Shown one piece after another: positions 28,289-62,631 of a stretch of DNA of 64,000 nt (its first letter is position 1; each line of letters opens with the position of its first letter). The notes under the pieces were generated by a model. It was given only the letters and a program-made list of their open reading frames with translations, searched no databases and had not been told where the DNA came from. Position numbers and translations under genes: made by a program. Source of the DNA: an uncultured Thermoactinomycetaceae bacterium (lineage in GTDB: Bacteria; Bacillota; Bacilli; Thermoactinomycetales; CALJVA01); the NCBI GenBank assembly GCA_937975135.1, contig CALJVA010000067.1, forward strand, positions 17,792 through 81,791, written 5' to 3'.

Positions 28289-28441
28289 ATGGAACTGAAA
28301 GATCTAGAAATCTCAGGTATCGAGATAATGGATCTAAAAGATGCTACAGCATTGCCAGAGACAGGTGCTTCTGCGGGATCGTCTGGCTGCTCTGCTTGCT
28401 CTACCTGTGGTTCTTGTTCTTGCTGTAGCTCTTGTTTCTAA
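28289..28441 (+). CDS. Thiopeptide/lactazole-type RiPP precursor peptide A2 (50 aa)
   Basis: MELKDLEISGIEIMDLKDATALPETGA-SAGSSGCSACSTCGSCSCCSSCF*. RBS GAGGGGA upstream. Confidence 0.85.
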   Translation: MELKDLEISGIEIMDLKDATALPETGASAGSSGCSACSTCGSCSCCSSCF

Positions 28442-28468
28442 GAATCTACTTTGAGAGGAGGTGAAACT

Positions 28469-28618
28469 ATGGAATTGAAAGAGTTGGAAATCACAGGTTT
28501 GGAAGTAATGGACTTGAATGATGCCACTGCATTGCCAGAAACCGGAGCATCTTCAGGCTCCTCTTCTTGCTCCGCTACATCTACTTGTGGTTCTTCTTCC
28601 TGCTGCGGCTCTTGCTAA
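28469..28618 (+). CDS. Thiopeptide/lactazole-type RiPP precursor peptide A3 (49 aa)
   Basis: MELKELEITGLEVMDLNDATALPETGA-SSGSSSCSATSTCGSSSCCGSC*. RBS AGGAGGTG 5 nt upstream. Confidence 0.85.
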   Translation: MELKELEITGLEVMDLNDATALPETGASSGSSSCSATSTCGSSSCCGSC

Positions 28619-28675
28619 GCTATGGAAGAGGATAATGATTGGGGCCTACAACAAAAGTTATTACTTTTACTTACC

Positions 28676-28715
28676 AATGATGTAATCGATGTGTTTTCAC
28701 ATCGGTTACATCATT
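28676..28715 (+). promoter_or_regulatory. 18-bp stem-loop between the precursor genes and the enzyme genes (attenuator or mRNA-stabilising hairpin)
   Basis: aatgatgtaatcgatgtg-tttt-cacatcggttacatcatt: 17 Watson-Crick pairs plus one G-U. Followed by tatgtattt, a weak U-tract. Confidence 0.5.
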
Positions 28716-28776
28716 TATGTATTTAAGCAATTTTTCACATAATCTAGATAATTAGTTAAAAGTAAGGAGGATTATA

Positions 28777-31509: not shown

Positions 31510-31512
31510 TTT

Positions 31513-34498: not shown

Positions 34499-36462
34499 AG
34501 CGGCAGATTTGGGTAGTTGGAGAGGGAACCTTTGCTGACCAGGTATTGAAGCAAATCGAAGTAAATGCTTCACTAATCCAAAAATGTATCGCCGATTTAC
34601 ATGAAGCAAATGATCAACATCAACCAGATGTAATTCTAAGTTTGCTTGATTACCGTGGAATTGAAGAGGAGTTGGAGATCCAAAGAATTGCAGGTCGCTT
34701 GCAAGTACCCTACTTACGTGCTCACTTATATACGGATCGGGCCTATATTGGGCCTTGGGTAATGCCCGAGAAAGAAGGATGTATTCGCTGTGCAGAGTAT
34801 CGGATGAGGACGGCCCATCCACATCGTGACATGGAAGAGGGAATGGTGAAGGCACAAAAAAGTGTACGTTATCTAGAAGCAAAAAAGTGCTGGAGCGTTC
34901 CCTTTCTTTCCTATTGTAGTGTGTTGATTGAAGGAGAATTGCAACAGTGGATTTCTGGAGGGCCATTGCAATTGATTGAGCAGATGTATGTGGGTTACGA
35001 TCATTTACTCACCGGACAGCTTCATCGGTTTCAGCCGAATCCAGTCTGCCCCGAATGCAGTCCTCTTCCCGATGATACCCCCGAGCTTTGCCAGTTAAAT
35101 CTTGTTCCACGACGCAAACCATCTCCACGAACCTATCGCTTACCCAATCCGAATCTGTCCAGAGAAAATTTGCGTCGTCAATTTTATGACTGGCGGATGG
35201 GAATATTTCGTCATATCTACCGGGATATTTATTCAAGTTTGTTACCGATTTGTGGGTCGGAACTACCTTTGGATGATCGGATGATCGAACGTGGTTTTGG
35301 GCGGACGACAACATTTAATGATTCGGAAAAGACCGCAATGTTGGAAGCTCTAGAAAGGTATGCTGGTATGAAACCGCGGGGCAAACGGACCGTGGTTCGA
35401 GGTTCTTATCGGGAGCTAAAAGATCGGGCGATTCACCCCCCGTCATTGGGCCTTCATGATCCAAAACAAGCGAATGAGCCAGGGTATAATTATCGGCCCT
35501 ACGATGATGATACTCCCTTTAACTGGGTTTGGGCCTATTCCTGGAAAGAAAAAAAGCCCGTTTTGATTCCAGAACAAATGGTTTATTACCGCTCCACAGA
35601 AACGAAGGATCGCTTTGTTTATGAAACCTCTAATGGTTGTGCGATGGGAGGGTCCTTAGAAGAAGCAATCTTCTATGCATTGTTGGAAGTGATTGAGCGG
35701 GATGCTTTCTTGATTGCTTGGTATAATCGCTTGCCTTTGGTTCATTTGGATATTGAAGATGTGAAAGATCCCAATATTTTGTTGGTTAAAGATCGCGTTA
35801 CTGCGATGGGATATCAGCTCCACTTTTTCGATATGACCATGGATAGTAAGGTTCCAAGTATATGGGCTACTTTGATCAATCCCGCTGAAGATGCTGGAGT
35901 GAAAACCTATTCCGCCGCCGGAGCTCACCCTGATCCCGAAAAGGCACTAATGGGGGCAATGGTGGAAGTTGTTACCTCTGTACCAATTTATGAACAAACC
36001 ATGCCACAACAGCGGGATCGTGCAACAGAGATGGTAAAGGATCCAGGAAAAGTTCAATTGATGGAAGATCATGTATTGCTTTATTCCCATCCTGATACGC
36101 TGAGTCGGTTTGATTTTTTGTTTACAGAACAAAGTAAAACAAAAAAAATGCGGGAGGCATATCGGGACTGGTATGAAAAGACACCCCCAGAAGATTTGAC
36201 AGAAGAACTTACGGCTTTAGTTGAGCGAATCCTCCAGAATAACCATGATCTTCTAATTGTTGATGAAACCACTCCCGAACTACGAAAAGTAGGAATTTAT
36301 GCGGTAAAGGTTTTTGTTCAAGGAATGCTTACGATGTCCTTCGGTCATCAGTATCGCAGGATTATTCTTGACCGTGTACAACAAGCCCCCATTTTGGCTG
36401 GCTATCGTACACATCCGATCAAGGAAGAAGAGATCAATCTTCATCCTCACCCCTTTCCGTGA
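34495..36462 (+). CDS. YcaO-family cyclodehydratase (azoline synthase) with N-terminal E1-like/zinc-ribbon region
   Basis: 655 aa. YcaO motifs GFGRTTTFNDSEKTAMLEALERYAG and ETSNGCAMGGSLEEAIFYALLEVIERDAF. N-terminal CIRC...CPEC cysteine pairs. ATGA overlap with the upstream gene. Confidence 0.85.
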   Translation: MKRQIWVVGEGTFADQVLKQIEVNASLIQKCIADLHEANDQHQPDVILSLLDYRGIEEELEIQRIAGRLQVPYLRAHLYTDRAYIGPWVMPEKEGCIRCAEYRMRTAHPHRDMEEGMVKAQKSVRYLEAKKCWSVPFLSYCSVLIEGELQQWISGGPLQLIEQMYVGYDHLLTGQLHRFQPNPVCPECSPLPDDTPELCQLNLVPRRKPSPRTYRLPNPNLSRENLRRQFYDWRMGIFRHIYRDIYSSLLPICGSELPLDDRMIERGFGRTTTFNDSEKTAMLEALERYAGMKPRGKRTVVRGSYRELKDRAIHPPSLGLHDPKQANEPGYNYRPYDDDTPFNWVWAYSWKEKKPVLIPEQMVYYRSTETKDRFVYETSNGCAMGGSLEEAIFYALLEVIERDAFLIAWYNRLPLVHLDIEDVKDPNILLVKDRVTAMGYQLHFFDMTMDSKVPSIWATLINPAEDAGVKTYSAAGAHPDPEKALMGAMVEVVTSVPIYEQTMPQQRDRATEMVKDPGKVQLMEDHVLLYSHPDTLSRFDFLFTEQSKTKKMREAYRDWYEKTPPEDLTEELTALVERILQNNHDLLIVDETTPELRKVGIYAVKVFVQGMLTMSFGHQYRRIILDRVQQAPILAGYRTHPIKEEEINLHPHPFP

Positions 36463-36472
36463 GGTGGACTTA

Positions 36473-38020
36473 ATGAATCGAGATCTTACCATCGGTCGCA
36501 CTTTTATTCACAATAAAACCTATTACCGTTTTCGGACGGCTCAAGATTTAAAATTGCGATCAGTTCCGGAAAGGTTTGTAACTGAGAAACCCGCAAAAAA
36601 AATGATTCCTTTAACGTGGGATGTATATCCTGATTTGGGGGAGATGGAGAGCTTTGGTCCGTTAAAAGTCCCATCTTTTGAGAGGAGAATAGCAACGCTT
36701 CTTTACTATACAATGGGACTTCTCCGTTATGAGGTGAATAGTCCACGGGCGTTTCATCGCCCTTTTCCTTCTCCTCGTGGTCTCTACGCATCGGAGATTT
36801 ACCTCTCTCTTCCTCAAGAAATAATCGGGGAAGCTGGTATCTATCGCTACAATCCGCTTTACCACGCTGTGGAAAAAAGGCGTTCGTTTACAGGATGGCA
36901 ACAGATTGAAGCAGCAATTGGTATCTCGCTTACAGATGCACAAGGTGTACTCGTGTTAGGTATTGACTTTTGGCGCATCGCCCATGTCTACGATGATTTT
37001 GCGCTAAATTTGGCCACGATAGAGGCAGGGCATGCTTTGGGACAGATCCTCCTTACGGCCCAACGTTTATCATGGGATGTTTCTGTTCATTACACCTTCA
37101 TAGATCAAGAGATTTTATCCTTATTTGGGTTGAACGAAGCGGAAGAAGCTCCGTTGGCCGTAATTGTTTTATGGCCTGCAGGGAAGAAAAAAATTGAGCC
37201 GGCCACCAAATTCTTTGCTCCATCGTTACCGCCCTTCACCGTCCATTCCCGCTATAGCCGGGAAATGGCACAGTGCAAGGAGATGCTGGAAATGGTACGA
37301 GCCTCTCGATTGCGTCGAGGGGATCCCTTTCCCTTAATAGAGATAGAGAAGGGTATATTCGAAGGAGATAAAAAAAGAATGGATTGGGTGCCGTTTCAAG
37401 TAGTAGGAGCAGAGTGGCATGATCCCAGTTGGCTAGAAGCGGTGAAAAGGCGAAGTTCGGGAAATGATCTGGGGGGGATGATGGCAGCCAGTACGTCCCT
37501 TAGCTTTACCCAGTTATCGAAGATGTTGCTCTTATTATTAGGGGAAAAACAATGGGAATGGCAAGTGGCATTAAAACATGTGAAAATTTTTGTGGTGGCT
37601 AATCGGGTGAATAATCTTAGGTCAGGTATTTATCGGGTAGTAAGAGAGCCGGATGGATTGATCCCTTACCGACAAGGATCTATGGGGGAATTACTGCAGA
37701 AATTGAGTATTTATTCTCCACAAAGTTGGAATGCCCATTCTTTTCCCGTCTCTATTTTTCTGGCGGTCGACTATCAAAGTGTACTGGAACGGTATGGAAA
37801 TCGCGGTTTTCAGATGGTTCAGCTGTGGATGGGTCAGATTAGCCAACATCTATCCTTATCAGCTGCTGCGATGGACTTTTTCTTACGTCCCCTTAAAAGC
37901 TTCTACGAAGAAGAAGTTGAACATGCTTTTGGTTTGTTATCAACGAAGGATACAATTGCTTATCAACTTATTTTGGGAAAAAATAAAACACCTTATTTAT
38001 CTTTCGATCTTGGATTTTAA
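36473..38020 (+). CDS. SagB-type (nitroreductase-fold, FMN) azoline dehydrogenase, two-lobed 515-aa form
   Basis: ATG 36473 follows GAGGTGG. PSPRGLYASEIYL and RRSSGNDL motifs are typical of SagB/McbC-type dehydrogenases. The track start at 36314 would overlap the YcaO gene by about 150 nt. Confidence 0.75.
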   Translation: MNRDLTIGRTFIHNKTYYRFRTAQDLKLRSVPERFVTEKPAKKMIPLTWDVYPDLGEMESFGPLKVPSFERRIATLLYYTMGLLRYEVNSPRAFHRPFPSPRGLYASEIYLSLPQEIIGEAGIYRYNPLYHAVEKRRSFTGWQQIEAAIGISLTDAQGVLVLGIDFWRIAHVYDDFALNLATIEAGHALGQILLTAQRLSWDVSVHYTFIDQEILSLFGLNEAEEAPLAVIVLWPAGKKKIEPATKFFAPSLPPFTVHSRYSREMAQCKEMLEMVRASRLRRGDPFPLIEIEKGIFEGDKKRMDWVPFQVVGAEWHDPSWLEAVKRRSSGNDLGGMMAASTSLSFTQLSKMLLLLLGEKQWEWQVALKHVKIFVVANRVNNLRSGIYRVVREPDGLIPYRQGSMGELLQKLSIYSPQSWNAHSFPVSIFLAVDYQSVLERYGNRGFQMVQLWMGQISQHLSLSAAAMDFFLRPLKSFYEEEVEHAFGLLSTKDTIAYQLILGKNKTPYLSFDLGF

Positions 38021-38047
38021 ATTAAGACGAGGTGACGGTTAACTCAT

Positions 38048-39019
38048 ATGAAACGGGATTGGCATGCTTATCACATTTTTTATCATCGGTTTGATAAACA
38101 AGACTCACTATTGCTAGACTGTATTGCTCCACTAGTAGCTGAGGTTCAGGAAAAAAACTTATGCAAGGATTGGTTTTTTATCCGCTATTGGGAAGGTGGA
38201 CCTCATATCCGTCTTCGTTTTTTGGATCCGGATCCTTTGGTTGAAACGATGATCCATGAGAGAATCACTGATTTTATTACAGCTTATCCACCTAAAGAAG
38301 AGATCACTCGGGATCAGTATTATCGAAATCATAAGTTTGATGGAGAACCCGTTGATCCAGACACCTTGCCATGGTATCCCAATGGAAGTATTGTGAAACT
38401 TCCTTATGAGCCGGAATATCAGCGCTATGGTGGAAAAGATGCGATGGCAATCAGTGAGAAAATCTTTACCTATTCTAGTGAAATGGCTTTGAAGGTGATG
38501 GGAGAGTCCGCTGGAGATTTGGCCAAACGATTAAATTTGGCCATGGATTTGATGATTTTAACCGCTAGGTGTTTAGATGTAAGGTTCGAAGAGCTTGCCG
38601 GTTATTTTAAGCGCTATGCAGATTATTGGGGTGGGTTTTTGGATCAACCCAAAGAAGCAGTACAAAAAATTGAATTTACATTTTCTAAGCAGGCTGAGCG
38701 ACTTGTAAAACGATTAGCCATATTGGAGAAGATCCATGATTCTCAAGAAGAGGTGCCACTTTATCGAATATGGGTGGAGCAATTAAAGTCAGCCCAACAA
38801 AGTTACCATCAGTTGGCAAGCGAAGGAAAGTTGATATCCCCTATTTCGATTCCTAATAAGAAAGGGGATCAAACGCGATTTGCCGTTTCAGCGATTGCTT
38901 TTTCTCAGATCCATATGACCAATAATCGTCTTGGACTTGCGCCTCCCTTTGAACATTATCTAGGTTATATGATTTATTTAATTGCGCAACATCGCCAATC
39001 TTCAATAAATGCTTCCTGA
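38048..39019 (+). CDS. Second thiopeptide-type bacteriocin biosynthesis domain protein (SpaB_C-like): candidate [4+2] pyridine synthase (TclM/LazC-like) or elimination domain
   Basis: 323 aa. Hallmark WHAYHIFYH...SLLLDCIAPLV...WFFIRYWEGGPHIRLRF. Confidence 0.7.
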   Translation: MKRDWHAYHIFYHRFDKQDSLLLDCIAPLVAEVQEKNLCKDWFFIRYWEGGPHIRLRFLDPDPLVETMIHERITDFITAYPPKEEITRDQYYRNHKFDGEPVDPDTLPWYPNGSIVKLPYEPEYQRYGGKDAMAISEKIFTYSSEMALKVMGESAGDLAKRLNLAMDLMILTARCLDVRFEELAGYFKRYADYWGGFLDQPKEAVQKIEFTFSKQAERLVKRLAILEKIHDSQEEVPLYRIWVEQLKSAQQSYHQLASEGKLISPISIPNKKGDQTRFAVSAIAFSQIHMTNNRLGLAPPFEHYLGYMIYLIAQHRQSSINAS

Positions 39020-39064
39020 AATCGTTGAGAGAGTATAAAGTGGACTGGAAAGGAGGCTTCTGTA

Positions 39065-39946
39065 ATGAAAAAATCAACACAGTGGATGTTCGCTTCTTTA
39101 AACAGCCTTACACCAGCAGAGCGGTTAAAACGGAAGGGAAAGGATTTCCCTAATCCTTTTTCACTGGCAGAGTTGTATCACGAAAACAGCAAGTATCATC
39201 CGAACTTGATGTCATACCAGATGCCCCTACATCAGTATGCAACACCCGATTACGCCAAAATGCGAAGGAAAGATTATGTGGACCTTCCTTCATTAAAGGA
39301 GCTGCCATCGTTACCTGTCCCATTAGGAGAAGTATTGAAGCGGAGGCGAAGCGAGTGGGACTTTGCCTTGCCAGTTACCTTTGAGCAACTGGCACAAGTA
39401 CTGCAGCATGCTTGGGGTGTTTCGGCTTACAAGCCTGTGCAAGATCATGACGGCAGCACCTTTGATCTTCGGTTACGAACCTACCCGTCAGGGGGGGCTC
39501 TATATCCCATTCAAATGATTATCTATGCACAACAAGTGGAAGGGCTTCAGTCCGGTTTATATCAATTTTCAGCTTTCGACAATCGGTTATATCGAATTTC
39601 AGGTGAACTGGACCCCGATTCTTTTTCTCGCTTAACCCCCTCCACGGATCCGGACCGCAATCCCATTTATCCTGGAAGTGACTTTCGTAAGGCGGCCTTT
39701 TTTTGCTTTTTATATGCGGACTTTACCAATCAAGCGGATAAGTATGGACTGCGGGCCTATCGTCTCGCACTGTTGGAAGCAGGACATGCAGCACAAAATT
39801 TACTCCTAGTCACTACGGCATTACAGTTGAAGAGTGTTCCTCTGGCGGGTTTTTATGATGATCGAGCCCATCAGCTGTTGCAGCTAAATGGTGTTGATCA
39901 AGCTTTGTTATATATAATTCCTGTGGGCAAATCGAAGGAGACTTAA
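39065..39946 (+). CDS. SagB/ThcOx-family dehydrogenase (293 aa)
   Basis: LYHENSKY, RRRSEWDF, TYPSGGALYP and AGHAAQNLLL motifs of the SagB-type dehydrogenase domain. Confidence 0.8.
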   Translation: MKKSTQWMFASLNSLTPAERLKRKGKDFPNPFSLAELYHENSKYHPNLMSYQMPLHQYATPDYAKMRRKDYVDLPSLKELPSLPVPLGEVLKRRRSEWDFALPVTFEQLAQVLQHAWGVSAYKPVQDHDGSTFDLRLRTYPSGGALYPIQMIIYAQQVEGLQSGLYQFSAFDNRLYRISGELDPDSFSRLTPSTDPDRNPIYPGSDFRKAAFFCFLYADFTNQADKYGLRAYRLALLEAGHAAQNLLLVTTALQLKSVPLAGFYDDRAHQLLQLNGVDQALLYIIPVGKSKET

Positions 39947-39948
39947 GA

Positions 39949-41070
39949 ATGATAAACAAAGAAACGCATGAGGAATGGTTGGATAAGGTATATCAATTGC
40001 GTCCTGGATATTTCTTTTCCTTTCCGAAGCCCCATGAGATGCAGATTCGCTTGAAAAGCTGGGGAGAGAGTCTGATTTGGCTGCGCGGTCGTGAAGGAGA
40101 GGACTGGGTATCTCACTTTTTCAGTGGGCTTGATGGCTTTCATCGGTTGAGGGAGCTTATTCAAAGAGTACCCAGAGAATATCATGAAAATGTATTTAAG
40201 ATACTCGCTGCTCTAAGACCTCGCTTTCTTATAGAATCAACCCTTAGCACTACAACTCGAATAGAAAAACGTTGGCAACAGATACTGGGAGTGAGAGCAA
40301 CAGCGATGGAGGAATATCAAAAAGCTTTAGCAGAAGCTCGCGTCTTAATCTTTGGAGCAGGTAAGTTAGGAAGTCGCTTTGCAACGAGCTTGGCCCAATG
40401 GAATCCACAGCAGCTTATGATTGTGGATGATGAAAAGATTACTCGAAATGATATTGAAGAAAGCCCTGCTTATGCTTTTTTTGAGGTAGGGGAGAACCGG
40501 GGAGAAGCTTTGGCCAAAACGATTAATCGGATGGCTGGGCGCACCTTAGCCGAAGGTGTGAACCTATCTTACGAAGACTTACAAGGTTTACGGGAGAGAA
40601 TCGAAAATTCAACACATGTTTTTGTGGCTATTGATCGCTATTCACCTGCTTTATATGATAAGGTTAATCATATCGCACTGGAGAAAAAAGTGCGTTGGTC
40701 TTTTCTGTTGGTAGATGGATGGGACTTATATGTTGGGCCTACTTTTTTTCCTGAACAATCGGGATGCTATCATTGTTTGGAACTGACCAAAAAGAGTGAT
40801 ATGCAAAAACCTGCTTCTTATGAAGCTTTCCGTGAAAGTTTGATCAGAGGAGAAAAAGCGCCTGATTTATGTAGTCCGATCGCTGCAGATTTGGCAGCGG
40901 GATTTTTGGCTGCGGATGCCATTCATCTCTTTGGGTTGATGCCCCAACGGATTGAAGCGGAAGCTAGTTTAACAATCGGTAGACAGCTCCATGTAAATTT
41001 ACGTACCTTTGACGCTTATTTTCATCCAATGATTAAGAAGCCTCGGTGTACAGTGTGTGGCACAGTCTAG
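39949..41070 (+). CDS. ThiF/E1-like protein with N-terminal RRE-like region (ocin-ThiF-like)
   Basis: Rossmann RVLIFGAGKLGSRFATSLAQ...MIVDDEKITRNDI, paired cysteines CYHC ... CTVC, and an N-terminal wHTH-like segment. Confidence 0.65.
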   Translation: MINKETHEEWLDKVYQLRPGYFFSFPKPHEMQIRLKSWGESLIWLRGREGEDWVSHFFSGLDGFHRLRELIQRVPREYHENVFKILAALRPRFLIESTLSTTTRIEKRWQQILGVRATAMEEYQKALAEARVLIFGAGKLGSRFATSLAQWNPQQLMIVDDEKITRNDIEESPAYAFFEVGENRGEALAKTINRMAGRTLAEGVNLSYEDLQGLRERIENSTHVFVAIDRYSPALYDKVNHIALEKKVRWSFLLVDGWDLYVGPTFFPEQSGCYHCLELTKKSDMQKPASYEAFRESLIRGEKAPDLCSPIAADLAAGFLAADAIHLFGLMPQRIEAEASLTIGRQLHVNLRTFDAYFHPMIKKPRCTVCGTV

Positions 41071-41087
41071 AAAGGGGAGAAGAGAAC

Positions 41088-41828
41088 ATGGCAAAGAAAA
41101 CTGTCATCGAAGTGGATGCAGTTGAAAAAGCTTACGGAACAACCAAAGCAGTGGATGGGATATCCTTTACAGTATCTCAGCAGGAGATTTTTGGTGTAAT
41201 TGGTGCCAATGGAGCAGGCAAGACAACCACATTGGAAATGATCATGGGCCTTAGGGTTCCAGATAAAGGAAATATCAAGGTGTTGGGGCATGATGTGGTC
41301 AAAAATACAGATCAAATCAAGCAAAAAATTGGTATTCAATTACAGCAAACATCGTTGTATGACCGCATTAAGGTTAAGGAAGCGCTAGAGTTGTTTGCTT
41401 CCTATTATGATAAAACAAGGGACCCACAAGAGATTATTCAGCTTCTGGGGTTAGAGCCCTATTTAAATAAATATGTAAAGAAGTTATCTGGTGGTTGGCA
41501 ACAGAGGACTGCATTGGCCCTTGCTTTAATCAATGATCCTGACATTATATTCCTAGATGAACCAACAACAGGACTCGATCCACAGGCACGGCGGGATTTG
41601 TGGGACGTGATTTTAAAGTTGCGTGATGAGGGGAAAACAATTGTTCTTTCGACACACTATATGGAAGAAGCACAACGCCATTGTGATCGAATCGCGGTAA
41701 TAAAAAAAGGACGGCTCGTCGATTGTGATACACCTGAAGGATTGATTCGCCGTCTACCAGAAGGCAAAGGGACAATGGATGATGTATACCTTCAACTAGC
41801 GGTGGAGCAGAAGGAGGAATCGGCATAA
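41088..41828 (+). CDS. ABC transporter ATP-binding protein
   Basis: Walker A GANGAGKTT, signature LSGGWQQR, Walker B IIFLDEPTTGLD. ATG 41088 follows GGGGAGAAGAG. Confidence 0.9.
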   Translation: MAKKTVIEVDAVEKAYGTTKAVDGISFTVSQQEIFGVIGANGAGKTTTLEMIMGLRVPDKGNIKVLGHDVVKNTDQIKQKIGIQLQQTSLYDRIKVKEALELFASYYDKTRDPQEIIQLLGLEPYLNKYVKKLSGGWQQRTALALALINDPDIIFLDEPTTGLDPQARRDLWDVILKLRDEGKTIVLSTHYMEEAQRHCDRIAVIKKGRLVDCDTPEGLIRRLPEGKGTMDDVYLQLAVEQKEESA

Positions 41829-41829
41829 G

Positions 41830-42570
41830 ATGCAGGCGTTATGGACACATACCAAAACTGAGATGAAGCTCTTTTTTCGTGAACCGATTGCGGTCTTTTT
41901 TACGCTGTTATTGCCGGGTGTTATGTTTGTTATTATGGGTAAAATTTTCGGTACGGAGACATATAGTATCGGGGACTATTTCGAAGTTTATATTCCCAAT
42001 ATGATAGGCATTGTTATTTTTGCTACCGGTTTTTTTGCAATTGGTCTCCAAATTGTCATTGATCGGGAAAAAGGAGTGTATAAAAGGCTAAAAGGAACTC
42101 CTCTTAATCCCATCTATGTGTTCACAGCACTGGTCGTGAAGGGATGTTTGGCCGTTTATTTAGGCGTGATTGAGATTTTAATTTTGGCCAAAGTTGTATT
42201 TGATGTGTCCTTGTCCTCTAGTCTTTTTCAGTTCTTTTTAGGTGTTACCCTATCCCTTCTCGCTTTTTTAGGTCTTGGTTTTTTGGTCGCCAGTATTTCG
42301 AAGCGAATGCAGACAGCCATGGCGATTGGCTTTATTGCCATGTATCCAATGATGTTTTTGTCAGGAGCTTGGTTTCCAATCGATAATTTTTCCCCTTTTT
42401 GGAAGTCGATGTCAAAAATAATTCCTTTAACTTATGCCAATGATATGATGCGTTTAGGATGGCAAGGGAAGCTGTATACTCAGGAAGGACTGGTTGCAAC
42501 CATAGTTCTTTTTGGGATCCTACTGGTGAGTGCTTTTATAGGTGTTCGTTTTTTCCGTTGGGATCCCTAA
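41830..42570 (+). CDS. ABC-2-type transporter permease
   Basis: 246 aa with six predicted TM segments. The start lies 1 nt after the ATPase stop, with an AGGAGG RBS. Confidence 0.85.
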   Translation: MQALWTHTKTEMKLFFREPIAVFFTLLLPGVMFVIMGKIFGTETYSIGDYFEVYIPNMIGIVIFATGFFAIGLQIVIDREKGVYKRLKGTPLNPIYVFTALVVKGCLAVYLGVIEILILAKVVFDVSLSSSLFQFFLGVTLSLLAFLGLGFLVASISKRMQTAMAIGFIAMYPMMFLSGAWFPIDNFSPFWKSMSKIIPLTYANDMMRLGWQGKLYTQEGLVATIVLFGILLVSAFIGVRFFRWDP

Positions 42571-43711: not shown

Positions 43712-43834
43712 CGTATCCTCCAAATATTGTAGTTTAGAAAGGTGGAGATCCACCAGAGGTAATCAGACTTGCGTTACATCACTCTTCTTTGTATGATTAG
43801 TATAACGTAATACAAGTAAACATCAAAGGCGAGG

Positions 43835-45110
<1,276 letters not shown>

Positions 45111-54553: not shown

Positions 54554-55708
54554 ATGTTGCCACGAGCAATCTATCTTCATATTCCTTTTTGTACGAACAT
54601 CTGTCATTATTGCGACTTTAACACGTATGTAGTTCGTGGTCAGCCCGTGGACGATTATCTGTTAGCATTGGAACGGGAAATGGCCAATACAGTAGAGCGA
54701 TATCCACCTGACCGGATTGACTCTATCTTTATTGGTGGGGGAACACCAACGGTTCTTGAGCCAGACCAATTAGAACGTTTACTTGAGGCGATTCAACGAT
54801 ATTTTCCAGTGTGGTCTGAGCAGATTGAATTTACTGTGGAGGCCAACCCGGGAACGACACAGTTGGAGAAGCTAAAGGTAATGAAAGCGGGAGGTGTCAA
54901 CCGCCTTAGTTTTGGAGCCCAAACATTTCGACCCGATTTGTTGCGACGAATTGGCCGGATCCATAACGCAGAGGATATTGTTCGTAGCGTCGAAGATGCT
55001 CGTGCTGTAGGGTTTGATAATCTATCTCTTGATCTGATGTTTGGTCTTCCTGACCAGCGAATTGCTGACTTGGAACAAACATTGCTACGAACAGTAAGTT
55101 TATCTCCGTCTCATATCTCCTTATATAGCCTGCAGATTGAAGAGGGGACACCTTTTCATACCTTACACCACCAAGGTAAATTGCCCCTGCCCTCTGAGGA
55201 TGAAGAGCTGGCTATGTACAAATTGGCTCAAGAATTTTTGTCAAAAGCAGGTTACAAACAATACGAAGTGAGCAATTTTGCTCAACCTGGGAGAGAGAGT
55301 CGACACAATTTAACCTATTGGCACAACGGGGCTTATTATGGATTTGGGGCTGGGGCTCACGGTTACATTCATGGAATTCGTTATGCTAATGTAAAGGGGA
55401 TTAAAGAGTATATAAAATGTAGCAATCGTGGGATGCGACCGGTTGGAGAAGAAAGAGCAGTTACTGACGAAGAGTCGATGGAAGACTTTTTGATTCTAGG
55501 CTTGCGACTTTTAGAAGGTGTATCGAAAGAACGCTTTTTTCATCGATATCGTCGTTCCCTGGATGAAGTTTTTGGACATGTTATAAAATCATTGGAAAGT
55601 CGTGGCCTACTGTTAGCAGATGAAGCGCGGATTAAGTTGACATCTCAAGGATTACTATTTGGAAATGAGGTATTTGCTGCCTTTATAGGTGAGGCAGGTA
55701 AAGCCTGA
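54554..55708 (+). CDS. hemW: Radical SAM heme chaperone HemW / HemN-like protein
   Basis: YLHIPFCTNICHYCDF (CxxxCxxC). Sits after lepA as in Bacillus. ATG 54554; the track start at 54434 overlaps lepA. Confidence 0.85.
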   Translation: MLPRAIYLHIPFCTNICHYCDFNTYVVRGQPVDDYLLALEREMANTVERYPPDRIDSIFIGGGTPTVLEPDQLERLLEAIQRYFPVWSEQIEFTVEANPGTTQLEKLKVMKAGGVNRLSFGAQTFRPDLLRRIGRIHNAEDIVRSVEDARAVGFDNLSLDLMFGLPDQRIADLEQTLLRTVSLSPSHISLYSLQIEEGTPFHTLHHQGKLPLPSEDEELAMYKLAQEFLSKAGYKQYEVSNFAQPGRESRHNLTYWHNGAYYGFGAGAHGYIHGIRYANVKGIKEYIKCSNRGMRPVGEERAVTDEESMEDFLILGLRLLEGVSKERFFHRYRRSLDEVFGHVIKSLESRGLLLADEARIKLTSQGLLFGNEVFAAFIGEAGKA

Positions 55709-55757
55709 GTAAACATTGACAATGACCTGTCCCTTTGGTACTTTTAAAGAAAGCATT

Positions 55758-55784
55758 TTAGCACTCGGTCACTGGGAGTGCTAA
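55758..55784. promoter_or_regulatory. CIRCE operator (HrcA binding site)
   Basis: Perfect TTAGCACTC-N9-GAGTGCTAA. A TTGACA -35 lies at 55716-55721 upstream. Confidence 0.95.
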
Positions 55785-55800
55785 CAAGGAGGTGGGGCAG

Positions 55801-56826
55801 ATGTTATCCCAAAGGCAGCGGCTCATTCTTCAATCGGTTGTGGATGATTATATTCGTACAGCTGAACCTGTAGGATCACGTAGTATTTCTAAGCGTAAAG
55901 ATGTGGGCTTTAGTGCTGCAACAATAAGGAATGAAATGGCTGATTTAGAAGAACTTGGATACCTAGAGCAGCCGCACACATCCGCTGGCCGTATTCCCTC
56001 TAACTTGGGGTATCGTTTCTATGTGGACCATCTGATCCCGACAGTTCGTCCTCCACGGAATGAAATTAAAGCGCTGCGAAATCTATTTGCGCTTAAAATT
56101 GATGAATTGGAACAGATGATCGCAGAAACAGCTAAAATACTTGCTCAGATTACCAACTACACGACGATTATTTTGGGACCACAGGTTTTTGGAACTAAGC
56201 TGAAACATATTCAGGTAGTTCCATTATCTGAACGAGTCGCCGTCTCGGTTATAGTGACAGATACGGGACATGTAGAGAAACGGCGTATTAAGGTGCCAGA
56301 AGGGATTTCCCTTACTTCCATTGAAAAGCTGGTAAATCTTTTAAATGCCAAACTAGTAGGGGTTCCTTTGTACAAGTTAAAAGATACCGTCTATGAAAAG
56401 TTGCGAGAAGAATTGTTACGACATGTAGATCAATGTGAGTATGTCCTTGATCTCGCAGCTGAACTGTTGCAAGCGGATCCCAATGTAAAGGTCCACTTTA
56501 GTGGAACGACCAATATGCTCGATCAACCTGAATTTCGTGATCTGGAAAAAATGAAGGGGATATTAAGTCTATTTGAAGAGGGAAAAACGGTTCTGCAACT
56601 TTTTCCTTTGATGGAAGAAGGGGTCCAAGTTCGAATCGGTCATGAAAACAATTTAGAGGAAGTAAGTCAATGCAGCATTGTTTCGGCAACCTACACACTA
56701 AAAGGACGCCCATTGGGTATTATAGGTGTGTTGGGTCCCACTCGTATGAACTATAAAAAGGTAATTGGTCTTTTAGATATCTTAACCAAAGATTTTTCCG
56801 AACATCTCCGACGCCTTTATGGTTGA
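55801..56826 (+). CDS. hrcA: Heat-inducible transcription repressor HrcA
   Basis: LSQRQRLILQSVVDDYIRTAEPVGSRSI N-terminus. ATG 55801 follows AAGGAGGTGGGG. Confidence 0.95.
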   Translation: MLSQRQRLILQSVVDDYIRTAEPVGSRSISKRKDVGFSAATIRNEMADLEELGYLEQPHTSAGRIPSNLGYRFYVDHLIPTVRPPRNEIKALRNLFALKIDELEQMIAETAKILAQITNYTTIILGPQVFGTKLKHIQVVPLSERVAVSVIVTDTGHVEKRRIKVPEGISLTSIEKLVNLLNAKLVGVPLYKLKDTVYEKLREELLRHVDQCEYVLDLAAELLQADPNVKVHFSGTTNMLDQPEFRDLEKMKGILSLFEEGKTVLQLFPLMEEGVQVRIGHENNLEEVSQCSIVSATYTLKGRPLGIIGVLGPTRMNYKKVIGLLDILTKDFSEHLRRLYG

Positions 56827-57075
56827 GAGCGGAGAAATTAGAGGGTTGGATGCCAAGGCATCTTTCCTATGTATTTAAAGTATGTGGACTTATGTCTTAT
56901 TCATTTATTTCAATCTGTTTCGGATCAAAAATTTAATGAGGGATCATGCATCCTGATATAAGTTTAGATCAAGGCTTGGCAGGAGCTATCTCATCCTCAT
57001 GCCATGTCCTAAGGGTATATTTACAATTCAGTATGAATTGCTTTTTGCGGGGAGAATCGCTACCCCGCTCTCCCT

Positions 57076-58653
57076 ATGCCCAAGGAAAGCGAGGAGAGTT
57101 ATTTGGAGCGTCACAAAGAACTGGAGAGTGCAGATCCCGGGGAAGCACGGATGAACGCCTTGCAAAGCAATGCTACTGCTGTCCGTGCTGTAGCTGCTGC
57201 TGTTGAAGGTACGCTAGGCCCCAAAGGGCTGGATACCATGTTGGTCAATGGCCGAGGAGAGGTTGTTGTCACCAACGACGGGGTAACGATATTAGAACGT
57301 ATGGATGTAAAGCATCCTGCCGCACAAATGGTGGTTAATATTGCACGCGCTCAGCAGGAAGAAGTGGGTGATGGAACGACTACTGCTACTCTGTTAGCGG
57401 CGGCATTGGTAGATGAAGGGGTTAAGCAGGTAAAGCGAGGTGTTCCGGTTGCAAAAGTAATCGCCGGGATCCAATATGGTGTCCGCTTTGCCTTGGAGCA
57501 AATGCAGATGAAAGCACGTCCAATATGGGATTTAGAGGATGAGTGGCTGCAACGAATTGCTTTTACCGCTGGTCGTGAACAGGAGGATATCACCAACCTG
57601 GTAATGGAAGCTGCCCACCTTGTCGGTCGAGAAAAGCTTTTGGAAAAAAACTTTAAGCTATCAGATACCGTGGTGGCTCACCCTCGAGTGGAGAGTGGAG
57701 TTTTTTCTGGTGTACTTCTTAATAAAGGACGGCTTAATGTACAAATGCCTTCTTTTTTGGAAAATCCGCGGGTGTTGGTCGTAGCGGATGCGTTGGAGCC
57801 AGAGCAATTGGAGGAAGAGGTATTACGTACAGAGGCCGGCTTTTCAAAGTATATGGAGTTAAAAGAAGCATTTCGCAAAACCATTGAGCAGCTGGTTGAA
57901 TTAGATGTAGGACTTGTCGTTGTAGGGCAAGGTGTAGACCCTGTGGCTGAGGAGATACTGACAGAGGCCTCGGTCATTGTTGTGAATCGGGTCAAAAAAA
58001 GCGACTTAATAAAAGTAGCTGAACATACCGGTGCACGAATGGTGAAGCGAACCGGTCTGGATAGGTCCCCTGAAGAGCTAGAGGAAATTTTGGGTTCCTG
58101 TGCTACAGTTGAAGAGGATGAGCGTTTTCAGCGGATCCGGATTACAGGAGGTACAGGAAAACCTTCAGCGACCATCTTAGTAGGAGCGGCTACAGAGGAA
58201 GTGGTCGGCGAGCGGGAGCGCATATGTAAGGATGCTGCGGCTGCTGTGCAGGCGGCATTACGAGGAGGATTTATTCCGGGGGGAGGAGCCACGGAACTGG
58301 CACTCGCCCGAGATGTTGAAAAGTATGGGGATACCGTTCAGGGAATGGAAGGATTCGGAATCGCTGCGGTTGCTGAAGCTTTACAACGGCCAATGGCTCA
58401 AGTGGTTGCTAATGCAGGTTTTAATCCATTGGAAAAGGTGGAAGAAGTAAAAGCATTACAATGGAAACGCCGTTCTGACTCTCTAGGCATTGACTGTGAC
58501 CGCGGTACGGTTGTGGATATGATTGAAATGGGTGTTGTGGATTCTTTATTGGTAAAGTATCATGCTTTACAGGCGGCAAGTGAAGTAAGTACTGCAATCC
58601 TCCGAATCCACACGGTGGTGCGGATGCGTGACGAAGAATACTTGTCGGAGTAG
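57076..58653 (+). CDS. Group II-like (thermosome/CCT-type, 'group III' bacterial) chaperonin
   Basis: TCP-1/cpn60 family signatures of the archaeal type: TLGPKGLDTMLV, VVVTNDGVTILERMDVKHPAAQMVV, QEEEVGDGTTTATLLA, GGGATELAL. 525 aa. The stop lies 16 nt before the grpE start. Confidence 0.85.
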   Translation: MPKESEESYLERHKELESADPGEARMNALQSNATAVRAVAAAVEGTLGPKGLDTMLVNGRGEVVVTNDGVTILERMDVKHPAAQMVVNIARAQQEEVGDGTTTATLLAAALVDEGVKQVKRGVPVAKVIAGIQYGVRFALEQMQMKARPIWDLEDEWLQRIAFTAGREQEDITNLVMEAAHLVGREKLLEKNFKLSDTVVAHPRVESGVFSGVLLNKGRLNVQMPSFLENPRVLVVADALEPEQLEEEVLRTEAGFSKYMELKEAFRKTIEQLVELDVGLVVVGQGVDPVAEEILTEASVIVVNRVKKSDLIKVAEHTGARMVKRTGLDRSPEELEEILGSCATVEEDERFQRIRITGGTGKPSATILVGAATEEVVGERERICKDAAAAVQAALRGGFIPGGGATELALARDVEKYGDTVQGMEGFGIAAVAEALQRPMAQVVANAGFNPLEKVEEVKALQWKRRSDSLGIDCDRGTVVDMIEMGVVDSLLVKYHALQAASEVSTAILRIHTVVRMRDEEYLSE

Positions 58654-58669
58654 GAAGGAGAGTCAGGTA

Positions 58670-59254
58670 ATGAGTTTAGATAATAAGGATCGTCAGGAAA
58701 AGCAAAACGACGAGACCAAAGAAGAAGTGAAGAAAGAAGAAGTACATATGTCTGATGATACCGCAGAAGTACACGTTGATTCAGATGAGAAGAAGGATTC
58801 TCCTCAAGAGGAGGAGATTGATTGGAAGAAAAAGGCGGAGGAGTACCACGGTAAGTACCTAAAGGCATTGGCGGATTTGGAAAATTACCGTAGACGTACC
58901 CGCAGGGAGCGAGAAGAGCTGATTAAGTATGCTGCAGGACCATTGCTAGAAAAGTTGTTACCTGTTGTAGATAATTTAGAACGTGCTCTTTCGGCTAGCA
59001 AGGAAAGTGGTCAAGAAGAAGCACTGCATCAGGGAGTGGACATTATTTATCGTCAGTTTATGCAAGTGCTTAAAGAGAGTGGTCTTACCCCAATCGAATC
59101 GGTAGGCCAACCTTTTGATCCCCATGTGCACAATGCTGTAGCTCAAGTGGAAAGTGATAAATACGAATCAGGAATAGTAGTTGAGGAGCTACAAAAGGGT
59201 TACCGATTTAAAGACCGAGTATTAAGACCTGCGATGGTACAGGTAAGTATTTAA
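58670..59254 (+). CDS. grpE: Nucleotide exchange factor GrpE
   Basis: KALADLENYRRRTRRERE and C-terminal GYRFKDRVLRPAMV. ATG 58670 follows GGAAGGAGAG. Confidence 0.95.
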   Translation: MSLDNKDRQEKQNDETKEEVKKEEVHMSDDTAEVHVDSDEKKDSPQEEEIDWKKKAEEYHGKYLKALADLENYRRRTRREREELIKYAAGPLLEKLLPVVDNLERALSASKESGQEEALHQGVDIIYRQFMQVLKESGLTPIESVGQPFDPHVHNAVAQVESDKYESGIVVEELQKGYRFKDRVLRPAMVQVSI

Positions 59255-59296
59255 CTTAAATAGAGGTTTAATTCTAGACTGGGAGGATAGGTTGTC

Positions 59297-61135
59297 ATGG
59301 GAAAAGTAATCGGAATTGACCTGGGAACGACCAATTCATGTGTCGCATTTATGGATGGAGATGAACCAGTTGTAATTCCCAATGCCGAAGGAGGTCGTAC
59401 CACAGCCTCTGTCGTCGGTTTTTCTAAAAGCGGAGAGCGCTTGATTGGTGAAGCAGCCAAACGACAAGCAATTACCAATCCAGATAAGACGATCATGTCC
59501 ATAAAACGACACATGGGTAGTGATTATAAAGTAAAGATTGATGAGAAAACATACACACCACAGGAAATTTCATCGATGATTCTGCAAAAGCTGAAGACGG
59601 ATGCAGAAGCTTACCTCGGCGAAAAGGTAACACAAGCAGTGATTACTGTTCCTGCTTATTTTAACGACAGCCAGCGACAAGCCACCAAAGATGCAGGGCG
59701 AATTGCTGGCTTGGAAGTACTACGAATTATTAACGAACCGACAGCTGCAGCCCTGGCATATGGTATGGATAAGACAGATGATCAGACGATTTTGGTCTTT
59801 GACTTGGGTGGAGGAACCTTTGACGTTTCCATCTTGGAGATGGGAGATGGCTTTTTTGAAGTAAAAGCTACAAGTGGCGACAACCAATTAGGTGGCGATG
59901 ATTTTGATCAAGTGATCATCGATTATCTTGTAGCGGAATTTAAAAAAGAGCATGGAATTGATCTTTCTAAAGATCGGATGGCACTTCAGCGGATGAAAGA
60001 TGCAGCAGAGAAAGCAAAGCATGATCTATCAGGTGTATTGACGACCACGATTTCACTACCTTTCTTAACTGCAGATGAAACTGGTCCCAAGCACCTTGAA
60101 GTTACGTTAAGCCGTGCCAAGTTTGAGGAGCTATCCGCTCACTTGGTGGAACGGACCATGGGACCAACCCGCCAAGCGCTTAAAGATGCAGGATTGTCGC
60201 CAAGTGATGTTGATAAGGTAATCCTAGTAGGAGGTTCCACACGAATTCCCGCTGTACAAGAAGCGATTAAGGAATTGACAGGTAAAGAGCCCAGCAAGGG
60301 CGTAAACCCTGACGAAGTCGTTGCGATGGGTGCAGCTATCCAAGGTGGTGTCCTATCAGGAGAGGTAAAAGACGTAGTCTTGCTGGACGTAACTCCCTTA
60401 TCTCTCGGGATTGAAACCTTGGGTGGAGTCTTCACTACGCTGATTGAGCGAAATACCACGATTCCGACTGAGAAATCCCAAATTTTCTCCACAGCTGCAG
60501 ATAATCAAACGGTAGTCGATATTCATGTTCTCCAGGGAGAGCGGCCCATGGCCAAGGATAATAAAACTTTGGGTCGTTTTCAGCTTCAGGATATCCCACC
60601 TGCTCCCCGGGGCGTTCCACAAATCGAGGTTACCTTTAAAATTGATGCCAACGGAATTGTGAATGTGTCCGCTCAAGACAAAGCGACAGGAAAGAGTAAA
60701 GATATCACCATTCAATCATCGAGCGGGTTGACAGAAGAGGAGATTCAACGCATGATCCGTGAGGCAGAAGAGCATGCCGAAGAGGATCAGAAGCGTAAAG
60801 AGGAAGTGGAGTTAAGAAACCGTGCTGATCAAATGATTTTCACCACTGAAAAAACATTGAAAGACCTTGAGGATAAAGTGGAGAAATCTGATGTTGATCA
60901 GGCCAATGAGAAGAAGGAAGCGCTAAAGAAAGCATTAGAAGGATCGGATACTGAAGAAATCAAAAAAGCACTGGAAGAACTGGAGCAAGTGGTACAGCAG
61001 CTTTCCGTGAAGTTGTACGAGAAAGCAGCTCAAGAAGCAAAGCAAGCGCAAACTGACACAAAGGATGAAAAAGAGAAAGATGATGTAGTAGATGCCGACT
61101 ATGAAGTCGTCGACGATGATAAAAAAGAGAAGTAA
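59297..61135 (+). CDS. dnaK: Molecular chaperone DnaK (Hsp70)
   Basis: [26 protein letters not shown], and the full-length Hsp70 pattern. Confidence 0.98.
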
Positions 61136-61157
61136 CTTTCCGCTTTTTTCTATAGAG

Positions 61158-61210
61158 GTCAAAGCCATGGTGAAAATCACCGATGGCTTTGACTTTTCCC
61201 GTTTTTTCTG
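61158..61210 (+). terminator. Long hairpin plus T-runs between dnaK and dnaJ (partial terminator/attenuator)
   Basis: gtcaaagccat-ggtga-aaa-tcacc-g-atggctttgac followed by ttttcccgttttttc. Confidence 0.6.
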
Positions 61211-61258
61211 TTTTGGGATTCATCACACCATTTCTTATGGTGAAAAGGGGGTGATCCG

Positions 61259-62374
61259 GTGAGTAAACGTGACTATTATGAAGTGCTGGGGGTCGGAAGA
61301 GATGCTAGTCAGGAGGAAATCCGGAAAGCGTACCGCAAATTAGCACGGAAGTACCATCCTGATGTCAATAAATCACCGGATGCTGAAGAAAAATTTAAAG
61401 AAGTGAAAGAGGCATATGAGGTTTTAAGTGATCCCCAGAAAAAAGCGAGATATGATCAATTTGGTCATACGGATCCTGGAGCTGCCGGTGGAGGTGGCTT
61501 TGGTGGCTTTGGTAGTACTGACTTTGGTTTTGGTGATATTTTTGATATGTTTTTTGGCGGACAGCGAAGGGATCCCAATGCACCGAGAAGTGGAGCCGAT
61601 CTGGAATATCGGTTAAAAATATCGTTTAAAGATGCTGCCTTTGGGAAAGAAATGGATATAATCGTTCCTCGAACCGAAACGTGTCGCACTTGTAACGGAA
61701 GTGGTGCAAGACCCGGAACCTCCCCTGAAACATGTGCAACTTGTCGTGGAACGGGAGAAGAAGAAAGGGCACAAAATACTCCCTTTGGTCGGATTGTAAA
61801 TCGTCGTCCTTGTTACACATGTGGTGGAAAAGGAACGATTATCCGTGATAAATGTACAACGTGTAGTGGCAGTGGAAGAGAGCGACGAAAAAGAAAAATT
61901 CATATCAAAATTCCTGCTGGAATTCACGATGGAGCACAATTGCGTGTGACAGGTGAAGGAGAGCCGGGAATAAATGGTGGCCGTCCTGGAGACTTGTATA
62001 TATTGATTGAAGTAGAACCTCATGAGATGTTTACGCGCGAAGATAATGACGTGGTTTGTGAACTCCCGGTCACCTTTACCCAAGTTGCATTGGGAGATGA
62101 AGTTGTTGTTCCTACATTGGATGGGCGTGCCAAGATTAAGATCCCCCCAGGAACTCAGAGCGGAGTAGAGTTCCGTCTACGAGGAAAGGGAATCCCTCAC
62201 CTCCGCGGTTACGGCAAAGGGGACCAGCGGGTGCGGATTCGAGTAGTTACGCCAACCAATCTGACAGAGGAACAAAAACAGCTGCTTCGTAAGTTTGCTA
62301 AAGTAAGTGGCGATTATGTCAATGAACAAAAAGAGGGCTTTTTTGACAAGTGGAGAAAACTTATGCGTGATTAG
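61259..62374 (+). CDS. dnaJ: Molecular chaperone DnaJ (Hsp40)
   Basis: J domain [10 protein letters not shown]...YHPD, a G/F-rich region, and four CxxCxGxG zinc-finger repeats. Confidence 0.97.
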
Positions 62375-62583
62375 TTTTCTTCTTGCACGAATGGAAAAAA
62401 TAAGTGATGAAACAAGACGAATTGGTCTATTGATACCACTTTTAGAGGCTGATGGTATTGGGTGTGCCTAAATTCCTCTTTTTGTAAGTAACAAAGTAGA
62501 GGGGCCACCCTTATCAAGTGTATCAACCTTTCCAGAAGATCTGTAAAGTTGGAATAAATGAAGATATGGTTTGGAAGGTGTTG

Positions 62584-62609
62584 GACGGGCAGTGGCCCGT
62601 CTTTTATTT
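62584..62609 (+). terminator. Rho-independent terminator upstream of prmA
   Basis: gacgggc-agtg-gcccgtc followed by ttttattt. Confidence 0.7.
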
Positions 62610-62631
62610 ACTATAGGAGGGGCGGGTTAGA

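Follow-up and report, generated by a model that had tools for sequence, protein, structure and literature searches.

Why does a bacterial dnaK operon carry a gene for a chaperonin that resembles the thermosomes more than GroEL, and how would this gene be expressed there? The question is raised by a 64,000-nt stretch of contig CALJVA010000067.1 from an uncultured Thermoactinomycetaceae bacterium (assembly GCA_937975135.1), which was analysed as a whole and is called the window below. In this window a chaperonin gene, here named cpn, lies between hrcA and grpE. According to our best explanation, cpn encodes a bacterial group III (thermosome-like, non-GroEL) chaperonin and is the second gene of a class I heat-shock operon governed by HrcA and its operator CIRCE (controlling inverted repeat of chaperone expression); we regard this as very probable, the estimate covering family, operon and mechanism jointly. 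The locus adds one ordinary member to a family that has already been described, and nothing in it is new in kind. Group III chaperonins as such bear on the relationship between GroEL and the thermosome/CCT proteins and on direct cooperation between chaperonins and the Hsp70 system.

Family of the chaperonin

The longest open reading frame (ORF) of cpn extends over 57076-58653 (+) and comprises 525 aa from an ATG. An earlier interpretation, made without database searches and called the sequence-only reading here, had assigned this ORF to the thermosome/CCT type on the basis of five motifs, and every one of them is present (TLGPKGLDTML, TNDGVTIL, HPAAQM, QQEEVGDGTTT and GGGATE). As group signatures these motifs hold in part only, since TLGPKG, GDGTTT and GGG are common to GroEL; it is indels, phylogeny and fold that separate the groups. 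The Pfam domain Cpn60_TCP1 spans the full length of the product (E 1.3e-114). When PDB sequences were ranked against the protein, 9RWQ came out on top with 594 bits. This entry carries the PDB label ‘ACII’, but 9RWQ is, according to PMC12696368, ACIII, a reconstruction of the group III ancestor that forms a double ring of octamers. Carboxydothermus Ch-CPN (5X9U/5X9V) ranked after it with 437 bits, the reconstructed group II ancestor ACII reached 289 bits and natural thermosomes at most 239 bits. Because its scores against the curated NCBIfam models for thermosomes, CCT and GroEL all stayed well below the respective cut-offs, the protein belongs to none of these three families.

Its phylogenetic position was analysed in a neighbour-joining tree with bootstrap, calculated from 18 sequences and 497 columns. 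The sample contained 11 natural bacterial group III proteins including that of the window, Ch-CPN, ACIII, ACII, two thermosomes and two GroEL proteins. Of the latter, the E. coli sequence was checked to be full-length (all 548 residues aligned with 4PKN, at 1139 bits), and the GroEL from Bacillota was taken from locus L029, a locus-scan match at 27% identity that proved to be an ordinary GroEL. The cpn protein fell into a Thermoactinomycetaceae clade (100% bootstrap) nested in group III (90%), group II formed a separate clade (100%) and GroEL was the outgroup. The earlier claim of a group III chaperonin distinct from GroEL was thus borne out, with group II set apart as well. Identities amount to 46-74% with group III, 32-38% with group II and 27-28% with GroEL. 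The best 120 database matches were all bacterial, came from several Bacillota lineages and were 54-96% identical; the best named relatives reach about 70% identity, and the exact protein is already present in public assemblies, on a contig of 1.09 Mb.

Group III is marked by deletions in the lid and by a nucleotide-sensing loop that lacks six residues of its group II counterpart and has an Arg (R155 of Ch-CPN) in place of Lys (PMC5635000). All of these were found in the cpn protein. Its sensing loop reads TA------GREQED, with a 6-residue gap relative to ACII, T. acidophilum and Sulfolobus, and Arg158 (516-aa numbering; corresponding to Arg155 of Ch-CPN) is invariant across 32 group III proteins. 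The lid shows 3+1-residue deletions that are common to all group III sequences and absent from group II, and the insertions specific to GroEL are absent. An AlphaFold2 (AF2) model of the protein (pLDDT 89.8) has a lid region with helices at 238-241 and 244-266. In a Foldseek search with this model, the closed form of Ch-CPN (5X9V) was the top match (E 1.5e-49, TM 0.85/0.88), followed by 5X9U, both within TM 0.85-0.88, and the group II and CCT matches trailed at TM 0.70-0.83.

The residues of the ATP site, GDGTTT (G89-T94), Asp377 at the position of GroEL D398 and GGG393-395, are invariant in the 32 group III proteins. Relative to the closest relative, locus L030, the dN/dS ratio of cpn is 0.037, the same as for dnaK and lower than for hrcA (0.055). 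On this evidence from sequence, cpn is a working gene under purifying selection and not a relic, with an intact ATPase site.

Operon, start codon and predicted expression

The genes hrcA, cpn, grpE, dnaK and dnaJ occupy the + strand of the window between 55.7 and 62.6 kb, with lepA and a HemW-type radical-SAM gene upstream and prmA downstream; all features described for this locus are on the + strand. A sigma-A type promoter is found at 55716-55744, consisting of the -35 element TTGACA (55716-55721), the extended -10 dinucleotide TG (55736-55737) and TACTTT (55739-55744). Between this promoter and hrcA lies a perfect CIRCE, TTAGCACTC-N9-GAGTGCTAA, at 55758-55784, the predicted HrcA site. At up to 3 mismatches it is the sole match in the 64-kb window (0.01 expected by chance), in agreement with the sequence-only reading, and the hrcA-cpn spacer accordingly contains no second copy at this threshold. 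When 9 Thermoactinomycetaceae loci are aligned, TTGACA, the TG-n-TA(C/A)TTT 17 bases further on, both CIRCE arms and the hrcA Shine-Dalgarno (SD) sequence are invariant, and the bases between these elements vary, including the 9-nt centre of CIRCE. Such a layout is that of the Bacillus-type class I heat-shock promoter, as established for B. subtilis.

The first gene, hrcA (55801-56826), encodes 341 aa from ATG 55801. The ORF listing places its start at 55792; the SD AAGGAGGTG at 55786-55794 (duplex -16.0 kcal/mol) backs ATG 55801, and the L030 orthologue was called at 341 aa. The product scored 341.6 bits with TIGR00331 (cut-off 197.2) and matched Pfam HrcA at E 1.4e-67. At the other end of cpn, the stop codon TAG (58651-58653) is separated from the grpE ATG at 58670 by 16 nt, so that the position between hrcA and grpE and the gap to grpE match those given earlier. 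The grpE SD GGAAGGAGAG starts 2 nt past the cpn stop (duplex -13.8 kcal/mol); grpE itself (58670-59254) encodes 194 aa (Pfam GrpE E 9e-54; NF010738 194 bits at a cut-off of 137). It is followed by dnaK (59297-61135; 612 aa), whose product is 85% identical to DnaK of Melghirimyces and whose L030 orthologue carries Pfam HSP70, and by dnaJ (61259-62374; 371 aa), which has a GTG start, an SD duplex of -21.2 kcal/mol and a position kept in related loci. A canonical intrinsic terminator was called by the terminator scan after dnaJ at 62583-62612 (GGACGGGC-AGTG-GCCCGTCT followed by TTTATTTACT; -15.8 kcal/mol, z -3.5).

Co-transcription of cpn with grpE, dnaK and dnaJ had been proposed earlier. In line with this proposal, the terminator scan called no canonical terminator between the CIRCE promoter and dnaK. 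For dnaJ the situation is different, as a strong terminator-like hairpin occupies the dnaK-dnaJ junction at 61155-61214 (hairpin 61155-61196, then a U-rich tract; -32.1 kcal/mol, z -7.0). The base of this hairpin, GUCAAAG...CUUUGAC-UUUUCC, is kept in L030 (10074-10135), L001, L003 and Paenibacillus locus L007. Because of this strong, conserved hairpin and its U-rich tract, the main transcript may stop behind dnaK, and dnaJ may depend on read-through or on a start of its own. Probably the element acts as a conserved attenuator and so determines the DnaK:DnaJ ratio.

The sequence-only reading had pointed out that ATG 57076 lacks a good SD, and indeed its duplex with the 3' end of 16S rRNA amounts to -1.4 kcal/mol only, compared with -12 to -21 kcal/mol for hrcA, grpE, dnaK and dnaJ. 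A start at TTG 57103 is preceded at normal spacing by the GAGGAG-containing SD GAGGAGAG (57091-57098; duplex -13.2 kcal/mol), comparable in strength to those of hrcA, grpE and dnaK. The product from this codon starts with MERHKELESADPGEARMNAL (MERHKE...) and matches the N-termini of the relatives (MERQDE.., MESQKE.., MEGQNE..) in sequence and length. ATG 57076 is merely the first start codon downstream of a stop and is part of a conserved non-coding pyrimidine box described below. In the relatives, the AUG of this box is directly followed by TAG in L034 and L036, L001 has an out-of-frame GTG in its place, and L037 and L041 have no start codon at the equivalent position. A third candidate, ATG 57151, was rejected; its SD is weak (-5.7 kcal/mol), and a protein starting there would lose residues that are conserved in relatives. 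Judged from these sequence features, cpn most likely starts at TTG 57103 and extends over 57103-58653 with 516 aa. With this probable start, the spacer behind hrcA measures 276 nt; the earlier figure of 250 nt is counted to ATG 57076. Public gene calls on identical DNA (proteins P0121 and P0123) are split between 516 aa (TTG; 17 contigs) and 525 aa (ATG; 9 contigs), and a corrected start codon is of practical value where they disagree. The expected N-terminal peptides are (M)ERHKELESADPGEAR from TTG 57103 and MPKESEESYLER from ATG 57076.

From these features the following course of expression can be proposed. Transcription would begin at the conserved sigma-A promoter (TTGACA / TG-n-TACTTT), with the CIRCE operator just downstream. 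HrcA would repress at CIRCE and let go under protein-folding stress, so that the chaperonin would be made along with the Hsp70 system. Translation of cpn would start at TTG 57103, and that of grpE 16 nt past the cpn stop. The subunit of about 56 kDa would assemble into a 2 x 8 double ring with a built-in helical lid that closes, once ATP is bound, around non-native proteins without GroES.

Several points weigh against this picture. We infer heat induction and co-transcription of cpn from HrcA/CIRCE of Bacillus subtilis, and the oligomeric state and closure mechanism would follow those of Carboxydothermus Ch-CPN by analogy; a 2 x 8 homo-hexadecamer whose closure upon ATP binding shows little cooperativity is known from Ch-CPN and ACIII. 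A search confined to the window found no groES beside cpn and no GroEL gene elsewhere in it. The strong dnaK-dnaJ hairpin makes co-transcription through dnaJ less certain than through dnaK. Finally, the spacer between hrcA and cpn, 276 nt compared with 0-170 nt elsewhere, harbours a weak hairpin behind hrcA and a promoter-like footprint that is free of CIRCE, and part of the expression of cpn, grpE and dnaK could therefore be independent of HrcA.

The hrcA-cpn spacer

The junction between hrcA and cpn differs strongly between lineages. In Paenibacillus the two genes overlap in an ATGA, in Desulforamulus they are separated by 23 nt and in Croceifilum by 55 nt. Most Thermoactinomycetaceae have 77-170 nt; 262-281 nt are found in the window, L030 and L031.

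The rival explanation that survives best takes its departure from this long spacer. According to it, hrcA would end at a leaky terminator in the lineage of the window, most transcription of cpn, grpE and dnaK would start at an internal sigma-A promoter without CIRCE, and the chaperonin would be largely constitutive. The putative terminator is a weak hairpin just past the hrcA stop (56848-56863; GGAUGC-CAAG-GCAUCU, then the U-containing tail UUCCUAUGUAUUU; -12.6 kcal/mol, z -2.2), which is a possible leaky terminator. The candidate internal promoter, together with an adjacent conserved block, spans 56971-57027. The block itself (56971-57004, 34 nt) contains the imperfect inverted repeat TGGCAGGAG-N10-CTCATGCCA plus a TTGGCA hexamer and ends with the -35-like ATGCCA; after a gap of 17 nt follows the -10-like TACAAT (57022-57027). 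In the promoter scan, ATGCCA-17-TACAAT (56999-57027) gave 9/12 matches.

The pattern of conservation relative to L030 speaks for this site. With a dS of 0.45, unconstrained sites should be about 66% identical, and 56830-56970, the 5' half of the spacer, comes to 68%. By comparison, the block at 56971-57004 is 97% identical, the 17 nt at 57005-57021 only 35%, the segment 57022-57046 with the -10-like hexamer 84%, the downstream stem-loop at 57047-57068 91% (both changes in the loop) and 57069-57102, with the box and the SD, 94%. Because conserved hexamers flank a drifting spacer, this looks like the footprint of a promoter. The length of the spacer relative to other family members and the lack of a second CIRCE point in the same direction.

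On the other hand, the footprint is seen in one close relative only (L030). The 34-nt block is absent from L031 (88% protein identity), and the spacers of L031 and L040 have no promoter-like site on the + strand; as a feature of the whole family, an internal promoter is not supported in these two loci. The -35 element is weak, and the number of promoter-like matches in the region, 6, hardly differs from the 5.5 obtained in shuffles. The post-hrcA hairpin has 6 bp and a poor U tract, was not called by the terminator scan and is poorly conserved in L030. We consider a split operon of this kind unlikely, if well short of negligible, and continue with the single HrcA/CIRCE-controlled transcript as the preferred reading.

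A second feature of the spacer is shared more widely. A GC-rich stem-loop, GCGGGG-N10-CCCCGC, at 57047-57068 (-13.2 kcal/mol; 34 nt upstream of the TTG start) is directly followed on its 3' side by the pyrimidine box UCUCCCUAUG (57069-57078; family consensus UAUCCCUAUG), which includes ATG 57076. In 12 Thermoactinomycetaceae loci, the spacers of which are otherwise unalignable, stem-loop and box precede cpn at a distance of 28-41 nt. The box beside the hairpin is kept in L030, L031, L032, L034, L036, L041 and L001, and with its C-run it has no other occurrence in the window and loci, 534 kb in total. A covariance model for which nine loci were used, with the lineage of the window left out, recovered window positions 57046-57105 (14.9 bits, E about 0.14) as well as L030 and L031 at the same place, and gave no match in Paenibacillus, Tumebacillus, Desulforamulus, Croceifilum, L002 and L004. 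The stem is 89.7% paired, and in 3/7 pairs both bases are replaced (GC to UA, GC to GU to AU). Since the alignment had been fitted to the model, this covariation is modest support for the stem.

Several familiar roles of such an element were considered and rejected. As to an RNA thermometer or other masking of the SD, the cpn SD is unpaired with a probability of 0.46 at 37 C, similar to grpE (0.47) and dnaK (0.41), and it opens no faster with temperature; masking by the box is disfavoured as well, as composition-matched shuffled boxes pair with the SD equally well (P 0.45). A canonical terminator at 57047-57068 is contradicted by the 2-4 U in the 8 nt past the stem in the 12 Thermoactinomycetaceae loci and by the missing call in the terminator scan, the clear terminators of this genome carrying U tracts. 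The spacer is not a repeat or mobile element with another copy in the window, and a small ORF at 56946-57206 suffers a 1-nt indel in L030 within the conserved block that it would encode. Rfam yielded no family in 55000-60000 at E up to 1, nor any match to the spacer in a whole-window scan at gathering threshold, and the overall fold of the spacer is not significant (z -0.95). Inspection by eye of the box and the conserved block for sigma-B, sigma-I and sigma-54 readings gave no consistent match.

What then could the element do? In B. subtilis, Homuth and co-workers reportedly found in 1999 that processing of the dnaK-operon transcript leaves hrcA mRNA and chaperone mRNA with different stabilities. 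By analogy, stem-loop and box are, with low confidence, a candidate determinant of mRNA processing or stability that would decouple the repressor level from the chaperones. The broader proposal, that stem-loop and UAUCCCUAUG box form a cis-acting RNA element that has not been described before, is confined to Thermoactinomycetaceae and sets the HrcA:chaperone ratio by processing/stability or by protein binding, is tentative and on balance doubtful. In the lineage of the window, the element may act together with a newly acquired internal promoter lacking CIRCE. Both the stem-loop with its box and the promoter-like footprint are leads, not discoveries.

Other spacers contain structures of their own. 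Locus L035 has a tandem direct repeat (GGTTGTTGAC, two copies) at 1907-1945, just upstream of the stem-loop. In L042 (Tumebacillus algifaecis) a hairpin that resembles a canonical terminator, AGGGAAG-N8-CUUUCCCU followed by UCUUUUAAAU, is located at about 1453-1485, 24 nt before the cpn start, and it carries a U tract (UCUUUU tail). Because of this terminator-like hairpin at the same junction, attenuation at the hrcA-cpn boundary may be a recurring theme. The catalogue of junctions (overlap, short gap, hairpin plus box, terminator-like hairpin) offers targets for studying unequal expression of repressor and chaperones from one operon.

Distribution, origin and known systems

The sequence-only reading had called such chaperonins rare, which does not hold. 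The arrangement has been described since 2010 and from many Firmicutes. By 2017, the monophyletic group III was known from 195 species, and in just one of these the gene was not part of the dnaK operon (PMC5635000). Group III chaperonins co-exist with GroEL/ES (PMC5220055), and, as stated in PMC5904260, which cites Techtmann and Robb 2010, their genes are regulated by HrcA. A locus scan with one genome per species returned 29 genome loci. In 28 of them, from 4 Thermoactinomycetaceae and 24 Paenibacillus species, the order is lepA-hemW-hrcA-cpn-grpE-dnaK-dnaJ-prmA; the remaining one is the ordinary GroEL locus L029. Another 13 contigs, fetched via homologues, contain hrcA-cpn-grpE-dnaK and include Hazenella, Croceifilum, Marinithermofilum, Thermoactinomyces, Tumebacillus and Desulforamulus reducens. 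Every Thermoactinomycetaceae locus sampled has cpn at the same place. A metagenome scan for more relatives gave one partial locus. The identity of the Cpn proteins (68% with Melghirimyces, about 55% with Paenibacillus) declines in parallel with those of DnaK, HrcA and GrpE, which fits long co-inheritance of cpn with the operon. Under strong constraint, cpn is a stable component of the dnaK operon in one aerobic family of the Bacillales and a large group of Paenibacillus species, beyond the anaerobic thermophiles from which such genes were first described.

This distribution also bears on the possibility that an archaeal group II thermosome gene was recently acquired by horizontal transfer and landed in the dnaK operon by chance. 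Such an origin would agree with the fact that the best curated NCBIfam matches are thermosome alpha and beta and with the slightly higher GC content of cpn (0.49-0.51 vs 0.42-0.46 in its neighbours). However, the thermosome scores are far under their cut-offs (314 vs 450, 305 vs 400 and 297 vs 671), identity to group II is well below that to group III, the tree groups the protein with bacterial group III, and the long nucleotide-sensing loop with Lys is absent. Moreover, the insertion site is the same in Thermoactinomycetaceae, Paenibacillus, Tumebacillus and Desulforamulus, identities track those of the neighbouring gene products, and the dN/dS ratio of cpn equals that of dnaK. A recent archaeal transfer is thus very improbable. 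Least probable of all is a divergent group I (GroEL) paralogue or a decaying, non-functional copy: the partial GroEL-model matches of 146-186 bits (best model 186 bits, cut-off 352) stand against the 27-28% identity, the lack of GroEL-specific insertions and of an adjacent groES, and decay is opposed by an unbroken frame of 516 codons, the invariant ATP-site residues and the low dN/dS of 0.037.

Some other features of the window, outside the operon, are recorded here. A thiopeptide-type cluster for a ribosomally synthesized and post-translationally modified peptide (RiPP) extends over 27107-42570 (+), between holA and the gpr/spoIIP block, and includes a LuxR/GerE regulator. Its precursors are three tandem Cys/Ser-rich ORFs at 28007-28186 (...SCSATSTCGSSSCCGSCW), 28289-28441 (...GCSACSTCGSCSCCSSCF) and 28451-28618 (...SCSATSTCGSSSCCGSC), and after these come Lant_dehydr_N, two Lant_dehydr_C, YcaO, two nitroreductase-like genes, ThiF and an ABC transporter. 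Immediately upstream of a SulP/STAS-family permease gene (7990-9765), at 7812-7979 (+), there is a c-di-AMP riboswitch (RF00379; 97 bits, gathering score 38). At 43823-44088 (+) there is a T-box leader (RF00230; 136 bits). Because it overlaps the annotated 5' end of the ORF at 44037-45110, the true start of this ORF is probably further downstream.

Among known systems, the prototype of group III, Ch-CPN of Carboxydothermus hydrogenoformans (CHY_0807; open form 5X9U, closed form 5X9V), is homologous to the cpn protein over its full length (437 bits, 46% identity). The two share the lid deletions as well as the short, Arg-bearing sensing loop, Ch-CPN is the best structural match, and it is likewise encoded in a dnaK operon (PMC5635000). 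They differ in that cpn belongs to a separate Bacillales branch and is preceded by the 276-nt spacer with stem-loop and box, and in that biochemistry is known from Ch-CPN whereas cpn is described from sequence and model. ACIII (9RWQ) is the highest-scoring solved sequence (594 bits, 58% identity); it is a synthetic, consensus-like protein without a natural gene. The group II chaperonins (T. acidophilum 1A6D, Mm-cpn 3KFB and CCT) share the three-domain fold, the built-in lid and the ATP-site motifs with the cpn protein at TM 0.70-0.83, and differ from it by their low identity (32-38%), a sensing loop that is 6 residues longer and contains Lys, a longer lid and their separate clade.

At the level of the operon, B. 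subtilis hrcA-grpE-dnaK-dnaJ resembles the window in the sigma-A promoter and CIRCE before hrcA, the lepA-hemW and prmA neighbours and the dnaK-dnaJ hairpin, but its hrcA is followed by grpE with no chaperonin gene in between. The Paenibacillus loci (L005-L028) have the gene order and the protein family of the window at 52-56% identity. In contrast to the window, their cpn ATG overlaps the hrcA TGA (ATGA, locus positions about 5965-5975), and spacer, hairpin and box are all missing. This overlap was found in the Paenibacillus loci inspected, including the soil species P. elgii, P. tyrfis and P. ehimensis, and suggests translational coupling of repressor and chaperonin in this genus.

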